From contig CAXXNF010000002.1 of NCBI GenBank assembly GCA_963666365.2, positions 96,001 through 160,000 on the forward strand: DNA of 64,000 nucleotides, in the 5' to 3' direction. The first letter of the stretch is position 1. The number at the start of each line of letters is the position of its first letter. Below are positions 6,622 through 16,816 of the stretch, in pieces. Under the pieces are notes generated by a model that was not told the DNA's origin, ran no database searches, and saw nothing but the letters and a program-made list of their open reading frames with translations. Origin of the DNA: Syntrophales bacterium (GTDB taxonomy: Bacteria > Desulfobacterota > Syntrophia > Syntrophales > UBA2210). A program made the translations under genes and the position numbers.

Positions 6622-6735
6622 CTGGATACGCCCGGCATGGGATTTGTGTATGTGAAAAAGCTCGAGAAGGCGGCCACCTATATCCCGAAAGAAGTACTTG
6701 AAAAAATCAGGAAAAAACGGGGGGTGCATGTATAA
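6622..6735 (+). pseudogene. C-terminal remnant of a P-II-like protein
   Basis: LDTPGMGFVYV resembles the P-II C-terminal motif and the next gene's LNEPHHGIIY; its stop overlaps the next start. Confidence 0.5.
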
Positions 6736-7012
6736 GCTTATCACCTGTATGATGAGACGGCATAAAGCGAGAGCGATTGTTGAGGAATTGCATGGAAGAG
6801 GCATCTTCACGGCAAATGCCAACTCGGCCCGCGGGACCAGCCGGACGAACCCCGGAGGGGTGGAAATAGATGTGGTCACGGTACTGGTGGATGACGGTCA
6901 GGCCGACGAGATTTTTGAATATCTTTATTTCGCCGCCGGGCTTAATGAGCCGCACCATGGGATCATATACCAGGAGCGCCTGGAGAGCGCCACCGATTAC
7001 CGAATTTCATAG
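6728..7012 (+). CDS. P-II-like (GlnB-fold) regulatory protein
   Basis: MYKLITCMM...SARG...EIDVVTVLVDDGQADEIFEYLY..AGLNEPHHGIIY; DUF1538 context. Confidence 0.75.
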   Translation: MYKLITCMMRRHKARAIVEELHGRGIFTANANSARGTSRTNPGGVEIDVVTVLVDDGQADEIFEYLYFAAGLNEPHHGIIYQERLESATDYRIS

Positions 7013-7061
7013 CGGTAATGCCAGATAACGCCGGTGAGAACACATAGATACGTAGAGGAAA

Positions 7062-9173
7062 ATGGACACCACACAAGAGACCCCTTTTATCAACCGTCTG
7101 GCACACGAGTCAAGCCCCTATCTGGTATCTCACGCCCACAATCCCGTGGACTGGTATCCCTGGGGAGATGAAGCCTTTGAAAGGGCGACGGCCGAAAATA
7201 AACCGGTCTTTCTCTCCGTGGGGTACTCCACCTGTCACTGGTGCCATGTAATGGCCCGGGAATCCTTTGAAAATGAAGAGATCGCCGCCCTCATGAACCA
7301 GGCCTTCATCTCCGTCAAGGTGGACCGCGAGGAACGACCCGATATCGACAAGCTCTATATGGCCGTCTGTCAAAGGCTCACCGGAAGCGGCGGCTGGCCT
7401 CTGACAGTCATCATGACTCCCGAGAGGAAACCCTTTTTCGCCGCCACCTACATCCCCGGAGAAAGCCGTTTCGGCATGAAGGGAATGCGCGAGCTGATTC
7501 CTCTTATCCGCAGCGTGTGGGACAATGACCGGCAGGAAGTCGACAGGATAGCTGAGCAGATTACGGCATCCTTCCGGGAACCGGCTGTTCCGCAGAAAAA
7601 AGCGGCTGTTGGTGCAGCAACCATCGAGGAGGCGTTCATTCAGCTCAGCCGCATATACGACAGCCACTATGGCGGATTCGGAAAGGTGCCGAAATTTCCC
7701 ACGCCTCACAACGTATCCTTTCTGCTCCGCTTCCGGCACAGGACGAAACGCGAAGAGGCGCTTCACATGGTCGAACATACGCTCACCGCAATGAGGACGG
7801 GGGGCATCTATGACCAGATCGGCTTCGGATTCCACCGCTACTCCACCGATGCAAAGTGGCTCGTGCCCCACTTCGAAAAGATGCTCTATGACCAGGCGCT
7901 TCTGCTGTATGCCTACGTAGAGGCCTATCAGGTGACGAAGAAGGATTTCTACAAAACAACAGCGGAAGAAATCGCCCACTATGTGCGGTCCGCGATGACT
8001 GACGGAGAAGGCGGATTCTACTCGGCCGAGGATGCGGACAGCGAGGGGGTGGAGGGAAAATTCTATCTCTGGACGAAAGCGGAGATAGAGGCGGTGCTCG
8101 ATGAAGCCGATGCGGCCTTTGCCTGTGAAATGTTCGGAATCGAAAAGGACGGCAATTTTCTGGATGAAATCGAAGGCAGGAAAAAAGGCGTCAACATACC
8201 CTGTCTGCCAAGATCTCATGCCGATGCGGCGCGGCACTTCGCCATGACTGAAGAGGCCCTGCGCCGGCGTCTCGAAGCTGTGCGGGAGACCCTTTTTCAC
8301 AAGAGAAGCGCACGGATACATCCGGACAGGGACGATAAAATCCTTCTCGACTGGAACGGGCTGATGATCGCAGCGCTTGCCAAAGCGGGACGGGCTTTTC
8401 ACAATGATGCGTACTGCTGCGCCGCGGAAAGGGCGGCACAGTTCATCCTTGAGCGTATGAGAGATGCCGACGGCCGCCTGCTGCACCGCTACCGGAAAGG
8501 AAATGCCGGTATAGCGGCACATCTGGACGATTACGCCTTTTTTATATGGGGACTTATCGAACTGTACGAGGCCACGTATAAAGAGGACTACCTGCGTATT
8601 GCCTGCGACCTTGCCGAAGATATGATCGATCGATTCTGGGACGACAAGGCGGGAGGATTGTACTTTACGCCCAGGAGCGAGACGGATCTCCTCTTTCGTC
8701 AAAAAGAGATCTACGACGGCGCTGTCCCCTCGGGCAACTCGGTGTCGCTGGCCAATATGGTCCGCCTCGGCATGCTTTCAATGAATCCCCTTTTCATGGA
8801 CAAGGCTTCGGAACTCATCTTGTTTTTTTCTCAGACGGTCATGGCATCACCGGCGGGAAGCACCCATTTTCTTGCGGCCTGCGACCTTGCCCTCGGCCCT
8901 TCCTATGAAATCATTGTGGCAGGCAGGCGGCAATCGGCAGACACGCAAGAAATGCTTGCCTCGCTCGACTCGGACTACTATCCCCATGTAACGGTGCTGC
9001 TTCATCCCGTCGACGAGGAGACCTCTTCCATCAAAAGCATTGCCGATTTTACCCGCAATCTCACGCCGCTTGAGGGAAAAGCGACGGCCTATGTCTGCGA
9101 ACGGGGCGCCTGCAGGCTTCCCACCACAGACATAGGGCGCATGCTGTCTGAATTCCGGGGACAGTATACGTAA
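7062..9173 (+). CDS. yyaL: YyaL/SSP411 thioredoxin-domain protein (DUF255 + alpha/alpha barrel)
   Basis: [63 protein letters not shown]. Confidence 0.92.
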
Positions 9174-9251
9174 TTCGGGATTCCTGTAAAGAATTGAGGT
9201 CCCCTTCCTCAGTGACTGTGCAACTCGATCAAAAATTTTTGAATTAAGTAT
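9151..9251. repeat. GGGGACAG palindromic element copy R1
   Basis: Left arm AATTCCGGGGACAGTATACGTAATTC (9151-9176) contains the yyaL stop; truncated right arm GAATTAAGTAT (9241-9251). Confidence 0.85.
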
Positions 9252-9268
9252 GATGCCCTCGTAAATAG

Positions 9269-9505
9269 TCAATCGGTTTCTATGATGATGCCGCACTGTT
9301 CGCAGCGGTAGCGGATTTTCTGCGTGCCTTCCGGTTCAATTTCATCAAAATCACAGTGCTTCCTGCCATACACTTCAAAACATTCGGGACAATACTTCTG
9401 TGAGCCAAGTTCGTCGGCATCGATGGTAAGATGACAGTGTCGGCACCGCAGCACAGGTTTCTTTTCCGGCAATAGCACAAGGGTAAGGTGTCTGCATGAA
9501 GTCAT
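9269..9505 (-). CDS. Small Cys-rich Zn-ribbon protein
   Basis: 78 aa with CRH, CRHC, CPEC and CEQC motifs. Confidence 0.7.
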   Translation of the reverse strand: MTSCRHLTLVLLPEKKPVLRCRHCHLTIDADELGSQKYCPECFEVYGRKHCDFDEIEPEGTQKIRYRCEQCGIIIETD

Positions 9506-9721
9506 AGTACGCGGCGTTTTCTGACGTGTGGGTTCATATAGGCATTGCAATTTCTACAGACTCGTAAAAGACGTCACTACGGTGAAAACCGGCGCCCAGA
9601 GCAACCGGATTTAAAAAAGGGATTTCATTCCCTCTCGAATTGTGAGAAAAATACACTCTTGAGAAAAAATGTCAAGCACTATCAGGATGAAAGACGGCCT
9701 GTTCCGTGAGAGGTTAAACAG

Positions 9722-10264
9722 ATGGACATATGCGACATGCGCTTTCCCCGTCAGTTGGAAACGGAGGGTTCTGATCAAATAATTCGCAGGGAGTTGATGG
9801 TGCACACCTCAAGGCTCTGGTCCGGAAGTAGAATGGATGTGCCGGTCATTTCCATGAGCGAACCGTTGATGACGGCACTGAAAAAGGCGAGTTATGAACG
9901 CCGGATTCGCTATGGCCTCGATGCCATCATTGAAAAACTGGCCGGTGAAAAGCGGGGGATTGCACATGTCAGAAAACGCACCGGCCGTTTCTATGGAGAC
10001 CGGATTTCCCGACTTCTCTTGCTTTCCAACGATGGCGCGGAACGTTTCTATCGCCATATCGAGCAGATGATACTGCAGGTACACGCCCCCAGACTGCTCT
10101 GCTGCCTTCTGAATATCGACAGCAACGCCCTCAGCCAGGCATGTACGGGTAAAGAAGGGGTGATAAAGGCCATTATGGCCGAACATAAAGATGTTGCCTC
10201 CGACATCCTGCGCGCCCTTGTGGCCATAAAGAATTCCGGGGACAGTAGATCCCGACAATTATGA
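9722..10264 (+). CDS. Hypothetical protein, possible divergent L7Ae/L30e/Gadd45 fold
   Basis: RBS GAGAGG; pattern RIRYGLDAIIEKL...RLLLLSNDG...ALSQACTGK..IKAI. Confidence 0.6.
   Translation: MDICDMRFPRQLETEGSDQIIRRELMVHTSRLWSGSRMDVPVISMSEPLMTALKKASYERRIRYGLDAIIEKLAGEKRGIAHVRKRTGRFYGDRISRLLLLSNDGAERFYRHIEQMILQVHAPRLLCCLLNIDSNALSQACTGKEGVIKAIMAEHKDVASDILRALVAIKNSGDSRSRQL
10232..10247 (+). repeat. GGGGACAG element copy R2 (partial left arm)
   Basis: AATTCCGGGGACAGTA, a 16-bp identity to R1/R4, lying in the last codons of ORF 9722..10264. Confidence 0.8.
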
Positions 10265-10425
10265 CAGGGTCAATAAAAGAGGTCCGGTTCCTATAGAGAA
10301 GTCAGCCCGCAGCTTTTACGGGGCGACGTTCCTTTTTGACGCCGTTGGCGACAAGCTCGGGATTGCCGCAAAAAAAGTCACTGGTACATTGATCCGGGAA
10401 TTTAGGTGGTAAAGAGAACGAAACC

Positions 10426-11229
10426 ATGAAAAAAGCATATGTTCACGGGTACAATCCTCGAGAGAACATTCGATTGCAGGATCAGGCTACGACCTTGGTC
10501 GACCTGCTCCATTACGATACCACATATCCAGCGGGAAGCTGTGTGTTGGAAGCCGGTTGCGGCGTTGGCGCACAAACGGTGACGCTGGCGAAAAATAGCC
10601 CCGGAGCTTCGATCGTATCCGTTGACATATCAGAACACTCGGTCGCGCAAGCCAAACAGAAGGTGCAAGCGGCAGGGTTGACCAATGTCCGTTTCCAGCA
10701 GGGGGATATTTTTCATCTGCCCTTTGCCCCGCATTCGTTTGATCATGTCTTTGTGTGCTTTGTCTTGGAGCACTTGAAAGAGCCGTGCGTCGCCTTACAG
10801 AAGTTAAAAGCATATCTAAAGCCGGGTCGAACAATTACGGTCATTGAAGGTGACCATGGTTCCGTCTATTTTTATCCTGAAAGCGATGCCGCGCATGCCG
10901 CGATTCACTGCCAGGTTGAATTGCAGTCTCGCGCGGGTGGAAACGCGTTGATTGGAAGGTCTCTGTATCCGTTGCTGGTTGCCGCGGGCTATCGCGAAGT
11001 CCGGGTCTCTCCTCGGATGGTATATGTCGATTCCAGCAAGCCAGAACTGGTCGATGGATTCACAAGAAAGACATTTACGGCCATGATCAAGGGGGTACGT
11101 CAATCAGCGATCGAGGAAGGCATCATAGACTCTGCTACATTCGACAAAGGAATCGAGGATCTATATCGGACGACCGAACCGGATGGTACATTCTGCTACA
11201 CTTTCTTCAAGGCCGAAGGGAACGCATGA
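10426..11229 (+). CDS. Class I SAM-dependent methyltransferase
   Basis: VLEAGCGVG motif I, VDIS, GDIFHLPF..HSFDHVF. Confidence 0.92.
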   Translation: MKKAYVHGYNPRENIRLQDQATTLVDLLHYDTTYPAGSCVLEAGCGVGAQTVTLAKNSPGASIVSVDISEHSVAQAKQKVQAAGLTNVRFQQGDIFHLPFAPHSFDHVFVCFVLEHLKEPCVALQKLKAYLKPGRTITVIEGDHGSVYFYPESDAAHAAIHCQVELQSRAGGNALIGRSLYPLLVAAGYREVRVSPRMVYVDSSKPELVDGFTRKTFTAMIKGVRQSAIEEGIIDSATFDKGIEDLYRTTEPDGTFCYTFFKAEGNA

Positions 11230-11239
11230 AAGCCGGAGT

Positions 11240-11270
11240 AATTCCGGGGACAGAGAATTCCCCCGGAATT
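11240..11270. repeat. GGGGACAG element copy R3 (minimal 31-bp hairpin)
   Basis: AATTCCGGGG-ACAGAGAATTC-CCCCGGAATT, 10 bp after the methyltransferase stop. Confidence 0.85.
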
Positions 11271-11276
11271 GAATGC

Positions 11277-11426
11277 TTATGCATCGACTTCGATGTCGAA
11301 GGTCAGTCGGGACACGCAGGCGTAGGTGTAGCCTTTTACGCGTTCCTCATCAGGAAGTTCATTCTCGTGCATTTCGACTGTGCCTTTATTGAGTTTGACT
11401 CTGCAGGCGCCGCACACCCCACTGTC
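11277..11426 (-). pseudogene. C-terminal remnant of a 2Fe-2S ferredoxin domain (not in ORF track)
   Basis: Manual translation DSGVCGACRVKLNKGTVEMHENELPDEERVKGYTYACVSRLTFDIEVDA*; first Cys ligand and upstream start codon missing. Confidence 0.75.
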
Positions 11427-11560
11427 AAGCCTGAACAGAGAGGCAGTCTCGACACCTCCTCGATTCCCCGGTACGCGACGACCGTATCCCCCTGTTGATC
11501 GGCAGGAGAAGAGAGCATATTCAACGTTGTATCCATATACGATCCTTAATGATCATGGCA

Positions 11561-11584
11561 GCCCCGGATTCATCGATCCGGGGC
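11561..11584. terminator. GC-rich hairpin downstream of hcp, possible terminator
   Basis: GCCCCGGAT-TCATCG-ATCCGGGGC; no clear U tract. Confidence 0.35.
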
Positions 11585-11616
11585 GTGCTGGTTTTGTGTT
11601 GATCGTACGAAATTAA

Positions 11617-13263
11617 TTAATTTCCCGCCATCATCGCGGCAATATCCTCCTCGACGGCCCCGATGGGCTTTATATCGAATTTCTCGACAAGCACCTTGGC
11701 CACTGTGAGTGAAAGGAAGCCCGGCAGCGTGGGACCCAGCCGGATGCCCTTGACGCCGAGATAAAGCAGGGCGCGCAGCACGGCCACCGTCATCTGTTCA
11801 TACCAGACGATGTCGTAGGAAATGGGCAGCTCGTTGATGTCGTTGAGGCCGAAGGCTTCTTTGAGTTTCAGGGCGATGACCGCCAGAGAGTATGAATCGT
11901 TGCAGTGGCCCGCATCGAGGACGCGATGAATGCCGCCGATAGCGCCCAGAGAAAGCTTGCTGTAGCGATATTTGGCGCATCCGGCCGTCAGGATCATGCG
12001 TGGTATCGGGGGGCAGCTTCTCGGCCACTTCGGTAAAGTAGCCGCGGGCCTTTTGCCGTTCGTCGCAGCCGGCCATGACGGCAAAGCGCTTAATGGCGGC
12101 GGATTTCACGGCGTCGATTACCTGATCGGCCAGGGCCAGACTCTGATTGTGGGCAAAGCCGCCGACGAGCGTGCCGGACTCGATCTCCTGCGGAGGGGCG
12201 CATTGCTTGGCCCGTTCAATGACTGCGGAAAAATCCTTTGCCCCGCCCGCCCGCCGGTTCGCAATGTGTGCGGCGCCCGGATAGTTGACCACACCGGTGG
12301 TAAACAGCCGGTCCAGATAGGTGTTGTCTTTTCTTACCGGGATCAGGCAGTTGGTGGTGAGGACGATGGGGCCGTTAAAGGATTCGAACTCGTTGTTCTG
12401 GCGCCACCACGCCCCGCCGTAGTTGCCGATAAAGTGACGGTATTTTTTGAAGGCCGGATAGTAGTTGGCTGGCAGCATCTCGCCGTGGGTGTATACATCC
12501 ACTCCGGTGCCTTCCGTCTGTGCGAGCAGTTCCTCCATGTCTTTCAGGTCGTAACCGGAAAACAGGATTCCGGTATTCTTACCCACGCCGATGTTTACCT
12601 CCGTAATTTCAGGATTACCATAGGCGTTGGTATTTGCCTTGTCCAGCAGGGCCATGGTGTTGACGGCGGTTTCTCCCGCCTTCATGATCAGACCAAACAT
12701 CTCATCCGTCGAAAGATCCCTGGTGGTCGACGCAAGCGCCTCCATGAGAAAGCCGTAGACGTCTTCTTCATAGCCGAGAATCGCGGCGCAGTCAGCATAG
12801 GCGGTGATTCCCTTGCTGCCGATGATCAGCAGCTCTTTCAGAGAACGGACATCCTCGTTTTGAACAGCCATGATGCGAACCTCATCGGACATGGCCTTAG
12901 CCATGATTGCTTCCTTGTGATCGGAAGCCCAAGTGGCGCAATCCTTCAGCATACCGCATACATCCGATCCGAGTTTTTCTTTCACCGCGCCGCGCACCTT
13001 GAGGGCCTGTCTGATCCGGTTGATAATTACCTCATCGTCCCAGGCTACGTTGGTAATGGTGATGAAAAGGGCTTCACAGATGAAGCGACCGGCATTTTTA
13101 TCCACCGCCCCTTTCTCCTTCAACAGTTCCCCTACACTGAAATCCCTTTGCACAGGTAAATGAGCAGATCCTGAAGATCGGCGGTTTCTTCGGGCTTGCC
13201 GCACACGCCCCTGACGATGCAGTCGGTGTTCTTGGCCGTTTCCTGACATTGAAAACAAAATAT
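11617..13263 (-). pseudogene. hcp: Hybrid cluster protein (hydroxylamine reductase) pseudogene
   Basis: After RBS AGGAGG the start reads ATA, then [22 protein letters not shown]; frameshifts near 13130 and 12000; motifs [32 protein letters not shown]; degenerate GCDER, GHCND, WYEQMT. Confidence 0.92.
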
Positions 13264-13632
13264 GATTTTTTCCTCCTGTCTGCTGTTAGTTTCAAACATT
13301 ATGCCTCACTCTATTTCAAAAATTGGTCTGTGTCTTTGCGCCGGCAAAAACAGGGGCGTCAAAGCACGAAAAATTTTAAGTTCCGTCAGAGGACAGGTTC
13401 TCGGAAAAATGTTACATTAAAATGCCCTTATGCATGTGCGGCGTAATTTGATTTTTCAACTGCATCAAATTGTGCTATATTTCGAGACAAACTGACATCG
13501 TGATAGCAGGTTGGGATAGTTTTCGTTTCTGTCGTTCCGGCGGAAATGATGAACAGGGAAAAGCGCAGTTTAAACAAGTGATAACATATCAACAGGATAG
13601 ACCATGCATTATTTGTTTAGAAAGGAAAAGAC

Positions 13633-14394
13633 ATGAAGACACGTATATGGATTGTTGCCGCAGTTGTACTGTTCCTCTTCCCTGTGATGGCGCATGCCGA
13701 GTGGGAGAGAACCATCAGTGCCTGGGACACACGCCTCCCCGACGAGGGGAAGGTGCAGGTGTCGTTCTGGGGAGGGTATTGGGAGACGGAGGTAAGGGGT
13801 GTCGATATCCAGGAAAATACCGGTTACATTGATATTACCTACGGTGTGTCGGATAGATGGTCATTCTGCGTGTCTCCTTCAGTCTATCGATGGAATCTGG
13901 AGCCGGGTCCCGCTGAGTCCGGCCTTTCCGACACCAGCGTCATGACGACCTACCGCTTCCTCGATGAGAATACGGATACGTTTGATGTGGCGATCCAGGG
14001 CGGGGTTAGTCTGCCTACAGGAGATGACGACAAGGGCCTGGGTTCGGGGAAAGTGGAACCGGGCGCAACGTTGCTTATTTCAAAAACGCTTGGGCCGTTT
14101 ATCGCCGTGGCCAACCTTGGCGGGAGGGCGATAATCGATTCCCGTGTCGGCGAAAAGGATTTTGTGGGATGGGCGATTCTCGAAGGTGTCTATCCCCTGA
14201 CCGAGCGACTGAGCCTTAACCTGTCGTTTTCCGCTTCGACGAAACGATATGATAATGCCGATGACGGCGCCGATGTGGGCTTAGGCTTTCGATTCACGCC
14301 GGTGAAGTGGATGTTCCTTGGCGGCATGGCCTATGCGAGTTTTACCGACGCCTACGACTGGGGCGTTAATCTCGCTGTGGGCTTTGAATTCTAA
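13633..14394 (+). CDS. Outer-membrane beta-barrel, MetA-pathway/'transporter' porin-like
   Basis: Signal peptide ending AHA; GLSDT...YRF, SLPTGDDDKGLGSG; terminal Phe (GFEF). Confidence 0.8.
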   Translation: MKTRIWIVAAVVLFLFPVMAHAEWERTISAWDTRLPDEGKVQVSFWGGYWETEVRGVDIQENTGYIDITYGVSDRWSFCVSPSVYRWNLEPGPAESGLSDTSVMTTYRFLDENTDTFDVAIQGGVSLPTGDDDKGLGSGKVEPGATLLISKTLGPFIAVANLGGRAIIDSRVGEKDFVGWAILEGVYPLTERLSLNLSFSASTKRYDNADDGADVGLGFRFTPVKWMFLGGMAYASFTDAYDWGVNLAVGFEF

Positions 14395-14414
14395 GAGATT
14401 GCTTCGTCGCTGTC

Positions 14415-14474
14415 AATTCCGGGGACAGTATACTTAATTCAAGGCGCAATTCCGAATTAAATATCCCCGGAATT
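14415..14474. repeat. GGGGACAG element copy R4
   Basis: Full left arm AATTCCGGGGACAGTATACTTAATTC (14415-14440); internally deleted right arm GAATTAAATATCCCCGGAATT (14454-14474). Confidence 0.9.
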
Positions 14475-14539
14475 GCGCCGGCAAGGCCCGGCGGGAAGAT
14501 CTTCATCTTGGCAGGTGTATATATTTTACAGCTTCTGCT

Positions 14540-15655
14540 TCAAGCTGCTCTAAATTCAGAGGGAAGCTTGAAATCTGTCCCTTTTCTATCAACGGCCAGC
14601 ATTGCCCTGTTCCGGTTACCTTTCTTCAGTTCCGGTTCATACGCGATTGCCAGTTGCTCATTCCACTGCGGTGCAAGCTTTGCGGCCTCGATGAGCATGG
14701 TCTGCAGGTGCTTGTTGCGTTTCTTGGAGATCGTGCCGCGCTGTTTCTTCCCCGCCGATTCCCTCTGTGCGCTGCACAGCCCGCAGTAACTGACTGCCTT
14801 CCGAATGGATGTAAATCGTCCCGGATCGTCGATCTCCAGCACCCAAGTCAGGGCTGTTATCTCTCCTACGTCTGGGATGTTCATGAGACGCTGCACCCGA
14901 TCACGGATTAGGCTGTGAGTGCGAAGCGTTGCAATAAGTTGCTTCTGGAACGAGCGAAACATCTCATAGCTTGAACGGCTCAGATGTAGAAGTTCCTTAA
15001 CGGAAGGGGGAATCTCATCGACTCGTTCAAGGAGTTCACAGAAATATTTCTTATCATGCAGCCGTTTCTTACTGTATGAAGCACCAACTTCCATGAGCAA
15101 GCCTGACATCTTGTTCTGCACCTTCACTGCCGTTCGAACAATGTGGTTACGATACCGTAATATCCGTCTCAGTTCACGAATTTCTTCTGAAAGCATGTAA
15201 CATTCAGGGAGGAGATTCACCCGCAACAGATCAGCTATCTTCTCGGCATAGGCTTTATCGTTCTTTTTCTTGGCGACCGTTATAGCCTTGAGCATCACAG
15301 GATGAGCCACCTTCAGGGCAAGGGCGTGCGGTTTGAGAAAATCCTATACCCATCCTGTGAACATAGTCGCCTCCATCGCGCCTATCCAGGGTCCCGGCAG
15401 ACCCTTCACCCATCTCTCCAGTGACTGCCTGTCGGCCCCTATCTTTCCCTGGTCAATCAAACATCCGTCAATGGCCTTAATACAATAGGCAATTACTTTC
15501 TTGTGAATGTCCAACCCGATATAATACAACCTGCTCATGGGAAACCTCCTTGTGGTTTATTTCTGGGCGAGGCCGTCTCGTTCCAGCAGTTTGTCTATAC
15601 ACACAATATCAACTGCCGGGAGGTTTCCTCCAATCTTTCTTACTTATGCATTCAA
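14540..15655 (-). mobile_element. IS110-family element; recombinase gene (15538-14540) broken by one in-frame TAG
   Basis: YIGLDIHK and AMEAT (DEDD domain), KKNDKAYA, YCGLCSAQRESAG (Tnp20 Ser). The two ORFs are in the same frame, separated by TAG at 15346-15344. 117-bp structured upstream end; downstream end not defined. Confidence 0.9.
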
Positions 15656-15767
15656 ACAGTATACTTAATTCTAATTAAAAAGCTTTGAGTGTTTTCTGCA
15701 GGTCGAGGCGGAGAGGATTCTTTTGTCTTTATAGGGATTCCGAATTAAGTATACTGTCCCCGGAATT
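15656..15767. repeat. GGGGACAG element copy R5
   Basis: Left arm ACAGTATACTTAATTC lacks the outer AATTCCGGGG; right arm GAATTAAGTATACTGTCCCCGGAATT (15742-15767) is the perfect reverse complement of 14415-14440. Confidence 0.9.
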
Positions 15768-15771
15768 TTCG

Positions 15772-15810
15772 TTGACATGAGTGCAATAAGTGAATAGTAT
15801 TCACTTATTG
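15772..15810 (+). promoter_or_regulatory. Sigma70 promoter with overlapping 27-bp palindromic operator
   Basis: TTGACA (15772-77), 17-bp spacer, TAGTAT (15795-800); CAATAAGTGAATA-G-TATTCACTTATTG (15784-15810) covers the -10. Confidence 0.85.
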
Positions 15811-15976
15811 AGGGTTTGTCAGCACAAAAGGCAGAGCTGCGCAACATCCCGTGATAGCCGTGATTTACGGTAAGGAGGGGAAAGGGCTGTGTGCGGGTAT
15901 AAATGGCGCCGCCGGTGAGACCGACACCGTGCGCGGGTCAGTGGCGCATGTCTTCAAGGGGAAGGGGGGTACACTC

Positions 15977-16816
15977 ATGGAAGGATCACTCAGGGACAGG
16001 ACCGCCATAGTTACGGGATCGGGAAAGCGGACCGGTATCGGATACGCCATTGCGGAAAAGCTTGCGTCCCGGGGCGCCCACGTGGTGATCGCCGATCTGG
16101 GAGAGTTAGCTCAAAATGGGGGAAATCCGCTCAAGACGGGAACATGGGATGAAATGTGTGATATTGCGTCGGAGCTTACTGACAGCTTCGATGTCAAGAC
16201 GCTGGCCGCGCATCTCGATGTAACCGATCCCGATTCAATTGCCATGATGGTCGAGGCGGTCCGCAAGACCTTCGGCGCCGTCGATATTCTCTGCAACAAC
16301 GCCGGCGCCTCTTTCGGCGTGCCCAATGCCGTAATTTCCTATGATGAAGAGGCCTGGATGAGAACTATCGATGTAAACCTGCACGGTGTGTTCCGTGTGT
16401 CCCGGGCGGTCATTCCGCTGATGAGCGGACGTCCGGCAAGCATCATCAACACGGCATCGCGGGCGGGGAAAAAGCCTCCCCTGTTCAACGGGGCCTACGC
16501 CGTGGCCAAGGCAGGGGTCATCATGTTGACAAAGGTGATGGCGCTGGAGTGCGGAGGCATGGGCATCAGGGTCAATGCCGTATGTCCCGGCCAGATTTCC
16601 ACGGATCTGGAGAAGTGGCGCTTCGGCCTGGAGGCGCAGTTCTATGGGACTACTGTTGAGGAGCGGGAACGGCTGATGTGCGAGACGATTCCCCTCGGGC
16701 GGATAGGCACGCCCGAAGAGGTGGGCGATCTGGTGGCCTGGCTTGCATCGGATGAGTCATCCTATGTGACGGGACAGGCGGTCAATATTACGGGCGGTCA
16801 ACTGATGGAACTGTAG
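15977..16816 (+). CDS. SDR family NAD(P)-dependent oxidoreductase
   Basis: TGSGKRTGIG, NNAG, YAVAK, VNAVCPG. Confidence 0.92.
   Translation: MEGSLRDRTAIVTGSGKRTGIGYAIAEKLASRGAHVVIADLGELAQNGGNPLKTGTWDEMCDIASELTDSFDVKTLAAHLDVTDPDSIAMMVEAVRKTFGAVDILCNNAGASFGVPNAVISYDEEAWMRTIDVNLHGVFRVSRAVIPLMSGRPASIINTASRAGKKPPLFNGAYAVAKAGVIMLTKVMALECGGMGIRVNAVCPGQISTDLEKWRFGLEAQFYGTTVEERERLMCETIPLGRIGTPEEVGDLVAWLASDESSYVTGQAVNITGGQLMEL

Follow-up and report, generated by a model that had tools for sequence, protein, structure and literature searches.

Five repeat sites and the genes among them

The stretch of DNA analysed here, hereafter the window, comprises 64,000 nucleotides from the genome of a Syntrophales bacterium (G000; 4.0 Mb in two contigs, C1 and C2), of which it covers C2:96001-160000, and between 9151 and 15767 it holds five copies of a repeat, R1 to R5, with genes and gene remnants among them. 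The repeat unit is a 26-nt sequence, AATTCCGGGGACAGTATACTTAATTC, which we refer to as the arm. When the window was scanned for this 26-mer with up to 3 mismatches, taking 100 shuffles as the expectation, copies were found at 9151-9176 (+ strand, 1 mismatch), 14415-14440 (+ strand, no mismatch) and 15742-15767 (- strand, no mismatch), against 0 expected. Its 14-mer AATTCCGGGGACAG is present also at 10232 and 11240, and with at most 1 mismatch these five sites are all the copies in the window; the bare 8-mer GGGGACAG occurs also at 8722 and 40606, there without the remainder of the arm. An earlier note, made from the sequence alone, had given the same positions (9151, 10232, 11240, 14415 and 15656-15767, none elsewhere in the window) and had taken the five elements as the borders of gene blocks in a cassette-like array.

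The five sites stand, and the regularity of the array was overstated, as R1, R3, R4 and R5 (four of the five) are each inverted doublets of 31-116 bp and R2 is a stump. R1 (9151-9266) is a doublet of 116 bp with an arm matching at 25 of 26 positions, a 64-nt spacer and a degenerate inverted right arm (20 of 26, by reading). R2 (10232-10247, + strand) is a solo partial arm of 16 nt only, the first 16 nt AATTCCGGGGACAGTA, joined to a fragment of an IS4-like transposase gene. R3 (11240-11270) is a mini doublet or palindrome of 31 bp, consisting of 11 nt and, from each arm, the outer 10 nt; R4 (14415-14474) is a 60-bp doublet whose right arm lacks 5 nt (ACTGT); and R5 (15656-15767) is a 112-bp doublet with a perfect right arm and a left arm short of its first 10 nt, because an insertion sequence (IS) of the IS110 family sits between GGGG and ACAG. 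The variable unit length that the earlier note described is thus real. Folded as DNA hairpins, R3 reaches -9.8 kcal/mol (z -3.3) and R4 -13.5 kcal/mol (z -4.05), the fold of R1 is weak (z -1.25), and a single arm as single-stranded DNA (ssDNA) has no fold at all (0 kcal/mol). No T-run follows R3 or R4 when the sequence is read directly, and an Rfam scan of window 8500-16500 at E up to 1 gave no match.

The placement of R1 to R4 at or just after the 3' ends of + strand genes, as the earlier note had it, is also found. R1 supplies the final 7 codons and the stop of the open reading frame (ORF) at 7062-9173, and R2 lies within the last 11 codons of the ORF at 9722-10264; R3 begins 10 nt past the stop of a methyltransferase gene, between this gene and a convergent ferredoxin gene, and R4 begins 20 nt past the stop of the ORF at 13633-14394.

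The genes among the repeats were assigned by Pfam and NCBIfam profile searches. The ORF rewritten at its C-terminus by R1 is a thioredoxin-like DUF255 gene (7062-9173, + strand, 703 aa; Pfam Thioredox_DsbH, E 1.7e-75), and convergent on R1 lies a small Cys-rich ORF (9269-9550, - strand), a weak Zn-ribbon whose best match, Cas12f1-like_TNB at E 7e-5, is below the cut-off. The 180-aa ORF at 9722-10264 (+ strand), whose last 11 codons pass through R2 into the IS fragment, has no family match in Pfam or NCBIfam, and its homologues in relatives sit at other places; the fragment itself (10248-10369, + strand, 122 nt) comes from a DDE transposase gene of IS4/IS1634-like type and is 85% identical to four IS copies of this genome. 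Then follow a class I S-adenosylmethionine (SAM) methyltransferase gene (10426-11229, + strand; Methyltransf_31, _11 and _25, E ~1e-22), a remnant of a 2Fe-2S ferredoxin gene of which the C-terminal half only is left (11280-11432, - strand; Fer2, E 4e-8, profile positions 37-77 of 77, with stops upstream), and an hcp pseudogene (hybrid-cluster protein, Prismane; 11617-13295, - strand) split into at least 2-3 frames. A paralogous stretch of hcp is present at C1:526891-527463, with 73-75% DNA identity to the hcp of the window. The row is closed by a gene for an outer-membrane beta-barrel-like protein, or "porin" (13633-14394, + strand; Phenol_MetA_deg, E 1.1e-5), and by the defective IS110-family element (14479-15655, - strand; Pfam Transposase_20 and DEDD_Tnp_IS110), whose frame is interrupted near 15310-15344. 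Most of the block contents named in the earlier note, namely the weak Zn-ribbon, the methyltransferase, the ferredoxin half, the split hcp, the barrel-like protein and the interrupted IS110, are therefore as described, except for its L7Ae-like gene, for which no Pfam or NCBIfam match was obtained.

The GC content of window 9-16 kb (48-57%, with a genome mean of ~52%) is not distinctive. GC skew changes sign near C2:620 kb and C1:1300 kb, and the replichores balance only with C1 reversed relative to C2, so that C1 and C2 are probably one circular chromosome; given this circle, the window probably lies ~500 kb from the presumed terminus.

The arm family and its transposase gene

Over the whole genome 67 arms were detected by blastn-short with at least 14 identities, versus 5 for the reversed-pattern control, and these were grouped into 39 loci. 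At C2:1171026-1171771, 1179047-1179793 and 1179827-1180573, inverted 26-nt arms frame a ~660-nt gene with the Pfam domain Y1_Tnp, the framed unit being ~750 bp long. Near-identical copies of this transposase gene lie together in C2:1171-1181 kb, inside an Rhs toxin locus 1.07 Mb away from the window: two are intact (219 aa), among them C2:1179074-1179730, one is frameshifted and gives two matches, one is truncated and one is a short fragment. The earlier note had placed the enzyme elsewhere, and had stated that inverted repeats tagged GGGG(A/T)CA(C/G) flank some Y1 HUH genes; both statements are borne out, as arm pairs here frame such genes and the tag is in print as GGGGWSAS or GGGG[AT][CG]A[CG]. 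The genome-wide search which it proposed likewise returned clustered loci, many of them near stops, with copy pairs flanking Y1 HUH genes.

The transposase protein matches Y1_Tnp with E 5e-14 and the NCBIfam family REP_Tyr_transpos with 77.7 bits, just below the cut-off of 80, versus 22.8 bits for transpos_IS200, where the cut-off is 55. Its translation contains an HVH triplet and a later tyrosine, which were assigned by eye only as the HUH motif and the catalytic residue. Further paralogues at 34-58% identity are found at C1:180931-181693 (L003), C2:1604467-1605120, C2:1052935-1053588 and other places, one of these being a pseudogene between arms of an ACAC variant, so that a single genome holds a diverse family.

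The link between gene and arm is also seen in other organisms. In three other genera of the same family, the best orthologues (G036, G045 and G034; 61-63% identity) have the same arms on both sides, and several genera share identical arms. A collection of species genomes gave 478 relatives with labels from many phyla, and of the best 80 of these, 71 loci contain GGGGACA[GC]. In the 73 of these 80 loci with enough flank for counting motif distances, the motif lies no more than 150 nt upstream of the gene in 55, with a sharp mode at 55 nt, and an inverted motif lies downstream in 45, with a mode at 25 nt; 37 have it on both sides. The family of transposase and arms is patchy, being present in 12 of 38 relatives' genomes, and in many genomes, for example at L065, L052, L077 and L040, arms pile up around the transposase gene. 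Moreover, in the source genome and beside the gene in many other species, a full arm is at places preceded by partial arms in tandem, each being AATTCCGGGGACAG with 2-3 nt added and present up to three times. At the 80 wider loci (L029-L108), outer arm pieces of ~14-18 nt, ending with GGGGACAS and a few nt more, were seen by eye to be stacked outside the full arm in roughly 20.

As for the short elements, the last codons of the transposase gene are retained in the doublets at C2:1178118-1178291 and C2:1187641-1187835, and the doublets thus arise by internal deletion of the full unit. Three dispersed doublets of 85-87 bp share a common spacer, and arm variants co-vary inside doublets, for example AATTAAGGGG with CCCCTTAATT and AATTTTGGGG with CCCCAAAATT. 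Although long ORFs make up 89% of the genome, 49 of the 67 arms are outside them; many arm loci are no more than 25 nt away from a stop codon, and at least 5 are placed where two ORFs end facing each other. Since loci are placed in this way over the whole genome, the position of R1 to R4 at gene 3' ends is a habit of the whole arm family and not a property of the array.

Such an arrangement is already known in its outline. In their published text, Di Nocera et al. 2013 (PMC3733652) introduced the name TIRtron for a RAYT-like gene flanked by long terminal inverted repeats and TIRYT for its enzyme, and described arms sharing the motif GGGGWSAS in moderately abundant families of singles, dimers and clusters; the text of Quentin et al. 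2018 (PMC6006769) gives the consensus GGGG[AT][CG]A[CG] and discusses TIRYTs as subclass 2.1 of TnpA-Y1. Shared features are seen here: a RAYT-like HUH/Y1 gene is flanked by long non-palindromic inverted repeats in three copies here, the arms carry GGGGACAG, which fits GGGGWSAS, at a fixed distance from the gene in the relatives, and arms occur as single, dimeric and clustered copies as well. We therefore consider it likely that the arms of the window are terminal inverted repeats of a TIRtron, present as short mobile doublets which settle behind genes, and that the genes between them are bystanders and not cargo. Here the TIRtron gene is multi-copy, with several near-identical copies in one locus. 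Placement behind stop codons, tandem partial arms, targeting by an IS110 element and an Rhs neighbourhood are not described in the passages on TIRtrons that were compared, figures and supplements aside, and seem to be new details.

A TIRtron consists of one HUH/Y1 transposase gene (TIRYT, a relative of RAYT) framed by inverted arms with the GGGGWSAS tag, and internal deletion turns such units into short non-autonomous doublets (arm, spacer, inverted arm), of which R1, R3, R4 and R5 are examples. The enzyme would move these doublets in trans through ssDNA, probably cutting near GGGG/ACAG, and partial arms would be the footprints of repeated cutting; both steps are modelled on IS200/IS605 and RAYT. 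Break points recur after GGGG, at the IS110 junction, in the right arm of R4 and in the right half of R3, and after ACAG or ACAGTA, at R2, in the left half of R3 and in two other solo stumps. A stretch which tolerates insertions, with its pseudogenes, its IS4-like fragment and its arm-targeting IS110 element, may then collect doublets repeatedly.

The comparison with other systems supports neither a simple REP element nor a classical IS200/IS605 element. The REPtrons, in which a RAYT gene is flanked by repetitive extragenic palindromic (REP) sequences (PMC2817692, PMC3116915), resemble this family in that a Y1 gene is flanked by its own repeats and non-autonomous inverted doublets form hairpins; their elements are likewise mostly extragenic and behind genes, and are used by IS as targets (PMC8450116). 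However, REPs are imperfect palindromes of 20-40 nt, usually in more than 100 copies, whereas here there are 39 loci, and the arm is no palindrome, forms no hairpin when single and carries neither a GTAG nor a CGTC tag. Moreover, with a multi-copy gene, a patchy occurrence and identical arms across genera, the transposase family looks more IS-like than a vertically kept single-copy RAYT. With IS200/IS605 (IS608, ISDra2) it shares the enzyme fold (Pfam Y1_Tnp), and by analogy an ssDNA mechanism with a short cleavage motif at the border of the element is likely; those elements, however, have subterminal hairpins and no terminal inverted repeats, whereas here there are terminal inverted repeats of 26 nt and no tnpB.

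Strain comparison and the IS110-family element

The species genomes of relatives are too distant for a test of insertion and deletion, since the same-genus genome G001 has the DUF255 gene alone in common with the 20-kb neighbourhood in the window (60.8% protein identity over 687 aa). The comparison was therefore made with one sister lineage, represented by contigs of a sediment-metagenome run (X1, ~95% identical) and by a metagenome contig of a sister strain (L109, 94% identical). Both are collinear with window 6622-9154 and 9269-14439 (7.8 kb, at 94% identity for L109). In the sister strain the R1 element (9155-9268, 114 nt) is replaced by 3 nt, and without it the DUF255 ORF has 712 aa versus 703 aa in the window; R3 and R4 are in place, as is R2 (with 1 change) together with its IS fragment, and hcp is split as well. 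The empty R1 site keeps one AATT, and this single case hints that AATT may be the target or the duplicated site.

The result bears directly on the explanation put forward in the earlier note, that is, a gene-capture platform other than an integron, where an HUH enzyme would cut and join ssDNA hairpins at the arms so that blocks enter, leave and shuffle as cassettes. Several observations suit it. The arms lie at gene 3' ends as attC sites do, and like an integron array the window has a gene and then a folded 3' repeat, several in a row and with unrelated functions; partial arms in tandem suggest that one site was cut and joined repeatedly; and the next seven homologues of the methyltransferase gene outside the strain (73-84% DNA and 79-86% protein identity) have each a different neighbourhood. 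But the order of the blocks is kept while one doublet is gained or lost, whereas a cassette platform would predict the reverse: blocks 1-3 with R2, R3 and R4 remain in place and the R1 element alone differs. The seven homologues have no flanking arms, one of them having a degenerate doublet 250 nt downstream and behind another ORF, and over 80 metagenome loci compared, the methyltransferase gene has adjoining arms in one, which is the sister strain. Furthermore, four of the five borders are complete doublets and not half-sites, and unlike in integrons the genes occur on either strand, the blocks stay stable from strain to strain, and a scan of the 25 ORFs of at least 110 aa in window 1-34000 gave no integrase domain. 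We regard the platform as improbable, and the claim of the earlier note is not upheld. That note would have abandoned it had the repeats been dispersed evenly with gene order conserved across them; the gene order is indeed conserved, whereas the repeats are clustered.

Among the assembled contigs, at depth 2-7, arm-to-arm joints in the runs X3, X5 and X2 (14438-14442 to 15742-15745, with 4-34 letters between) were considered as deletions of the IS110 block and rejected; all are taken as other doublet copies, because the two spacers that could be placed, 34 nt and GAAC, match the doublets C2:1838975 and C2:343391.

A different explanation is that the host keeps the elements at gene ends to stabilise or terminate transcripts as RNA hairpins, the link to a transposase being merely historical. 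Many loci within 25 nt of a stop codon, several of them between convergent genes, would suit this, as would the doublets that fold and the retention of R2, R3 and R4 at 94% identity; REPs, too, are described in the text of Di Nocera et al. (PMC3733652) as mostly downstream of coding regions and plausibly transcribed. On the other side, the ORFs upstream of R1 and R2 have had their C-termini rewritten by these elements, which has the look of insertion damage, and arms are found behind pseudogenes and IS fragments where nothing is left to regulate. Together with the lack of a T-run after R3 and R4, the low copy number (39 loci) and the patchy occurrence (12 of 38 genomes), this makes a host function of such a kind quite improbable, and the reading as mobile TIRtron doublets is preferred.

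The IS110-family element deserves separate attention, as it breaks an arm at a precise position. A second copy in the source genome (C2:2172000-2173220) is 81% identical to that of the window, and this copy and those in two other genomes end with ...GCATTCAA directly against ACAS...TACTTAATT, which is the arm minus its first 10 nt. The element thus abuts the same arm position in four of four copies, representing three independent insertions and not four, since the flanks of L009 and L011 agree and the two probably go back to one event. In these two the other flank is AATTCGGGGG, which puts the element exactly between GGGG and ACAC of the arm. Compared with full copies, that of the window lacks ~290 nt at its terminus downstream of the gene. 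By these junctions, the IS110-family element inserts into the arm in a site-specific manner. In the full copies (L004, L009 and L011), one end is non-coding over roughly 350 nt and contains GTTCTGGGGACTGTGCTATC on the complementary strand, which resembles the target arm and might, by its sequence, be part of a guide RNA or of the donor site. Members of the IS110 family are known to insert into REP-type repeats more generally. Other IS, too, can lodge in such repeats, copies of ISPpu9 being described as sitting in REPs (PMC8450116).

As to the other insertion sequences, the four genomic copies related to the fragment at R2 are near-identical (99.8-100%) elements of 1774 bp with a 545-aa DDE transposase, at C2:562441-564214, C2:1017716-1019489, C2:2174350-2176123 and C1:375807-377580, and this IS looks recently active because three of the four copies have clear 5-bp target duplications. 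One of the copies is 1.1 kb from the second IS110 copy.

Clustering, Rhs loci and the meaning of the arms

Several observations weigh against the TIRtron explanation. To begin with, five of the 39 arm loci fall within 6.7 kb, which is far beyond a model of uniform placement (P ~2e-5); the cluster is therefore real, which also favours a capture platform. Repeated settling in an insertion-tolerant stretch is the preferred reading of it, and local hopping perhaps contributes, yet this is an after-the-fact account and itself counts against the explanation. Secondly, synteny with the sister strain ends inside R4, at 14439, so that at least one block differs at a repeat; in place of IS110 and R5, the 760 nt of L109 right of R4 (8040-8798) hold two - strand features, an Rhs/YD-repeat gene end and an ORF of 151 aa. 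Such a break exactly at R4 is what shuffling at the arms would give, but it can be accounted for because the IS110 element targets the arm. Thirdly, mobility depends on one case of presence and absence, R1, which is not a clean excision, as 3 nt differ. Fourthly, proteins of subclass 2.1 are described in the text of Quentin et al. (PMC6006769) as long, with a C-terminal helix-turn-helix (HTH) of the Bac_DnaA_C, HTH_23 or HTH_28 type, whereas the protein here is short (219 aa) and a Pfam search at E up to 1 gave Y1_Tnp and a chance-level TPR match only; since the C-terminal HTH was not found, no TnpA-Y1 subclass was assigned. Moreover, although a lagging-strand ssDNA mechanism might predict one, there is no clear link between the orientation of solo arms and the direction of replication: in the positive-skew part 7 of 7 are on the + strand, 4 of those being the window cluster, and in the negative-skew parts the ratio is 5 versus 5. 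Finally, an arm stands at the head of every Rhs orphan module in the genome G014, as described below.

Of the slot right of R4 it can be said that it is variable between strains, since between the porin-like gene and the SDR gene there is an Rhs end in L109 and an IS110 remnant with R5 here; no X1 or L109 sequence matched the IS110 element at 14479-15655.

Clusters of arms are found elsewhere as well, again in DNA that is mobile or dispensable. One lies between two IS5-like copies, another beside the second IS110 copy and an IS4-like copy, and 9 of the 39 loci are in the Rhs locus which holds the transposase genes and an IS66. This locus (L001, C2:1169001-1189000) is an Rhs/YD-repeat toxin locus whose main gene (2097 aa), orphan C-terminal pieces and small ORFs further downstream are interspersed with four Y1_Tnp ORFs and a further gene fragment, each with arms, one copy being split by the IS66. 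One could then suppose that the cluster in the window is the remains of one former home site of a TIRtron, whose gene was lost and between whose arms unrelated genes and IS inserted later. Arms do pile up round the gene elsewhere, as in this very locus, and there is IS debris in the region; however, the window as a whole gave no match to the transposase gene at an E value of 1e-10 or lower, the DUF255, methyltransferase and hcp genes that lie among the arms are ordinary host genes with homologues across the bacterial family, and R1 is a separate recent gain or loss. We find a former home site very improbable, and repeated arrival of TIRtron doublets again the better account.

The Rhs loci also bring in further evidence for joining at the arms. 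G014 has 12 arms, all of them at the 5' edges of orphan Rhs modules; these form three arrays, C1:303001-321000 (L013), C2:703001-718000 (L014) and C2:984001-996000 (L015). The modules of L013 begin with variable partial arms, a full arm, a conserved 85-nt promoter-like stretch and the same truncation point of the Rhs core. This arm-85 nt-core junction is one and identical in all five aligned modules, and L014 and L015 match the unit at 88-97%. Elsewhere, an Rhs core end abuts an arm in a contig of Nitrospiraceae (L050). These junctions, with the TIRtrons that separate the Rhs modules of G000 and the Rhs fragment at R4 in L109, speak for capture or for building of Rhs junctions by the TIRYT. 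A specific form of the idea is that the TIRYT, cutting at GGGG/ACAG and joining other DNA, helped to build or reshuffle the orphan arrays of Rhs toxin and immunity genes, the window cluster being a decayed outpost of such a junction-making hot spot. As the junction is identical in five modules, however, the G014 arrays fit duplication of one unit better than repeated capture, and a general link of Rhs with the TIRYT was rejected, Rhs being beside the enzyme gene in only 2 of the 80 wider loci. Because arms recur at Rhs junctions in G000, G014, L109 and L050, we keep a small chance for the TIRYT joining unrelated DNA, and doubt that it made the cluster in the window.

To sum up, the arms of the window are most readily understood as ends of a TIRtron whose enzyme gene lies far off in the same genome. 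TIRtrons have hardly been studied since they were named in 2013, and this genome offers a worked example with a multi-copy enzyme gene, deletion derivatives, one gain or loss of a doublet at the strain level, and recurrent break points that predict the cut. The link between enzyme and arm is already in print; what seems new here is the placement at gene 3' ends, the partial-arm footprints, the targeting by IS110 and the strain-level indel. A cassette platform would matter if it were true, and the evidence does not support it. For the reading of such genomes the arms have a practical meaning of their own: since two ORFs have had their 3' ends rewritten by them and an IS110-family element is drawn to them, they mark places where gene ends and synteny are unreliable.

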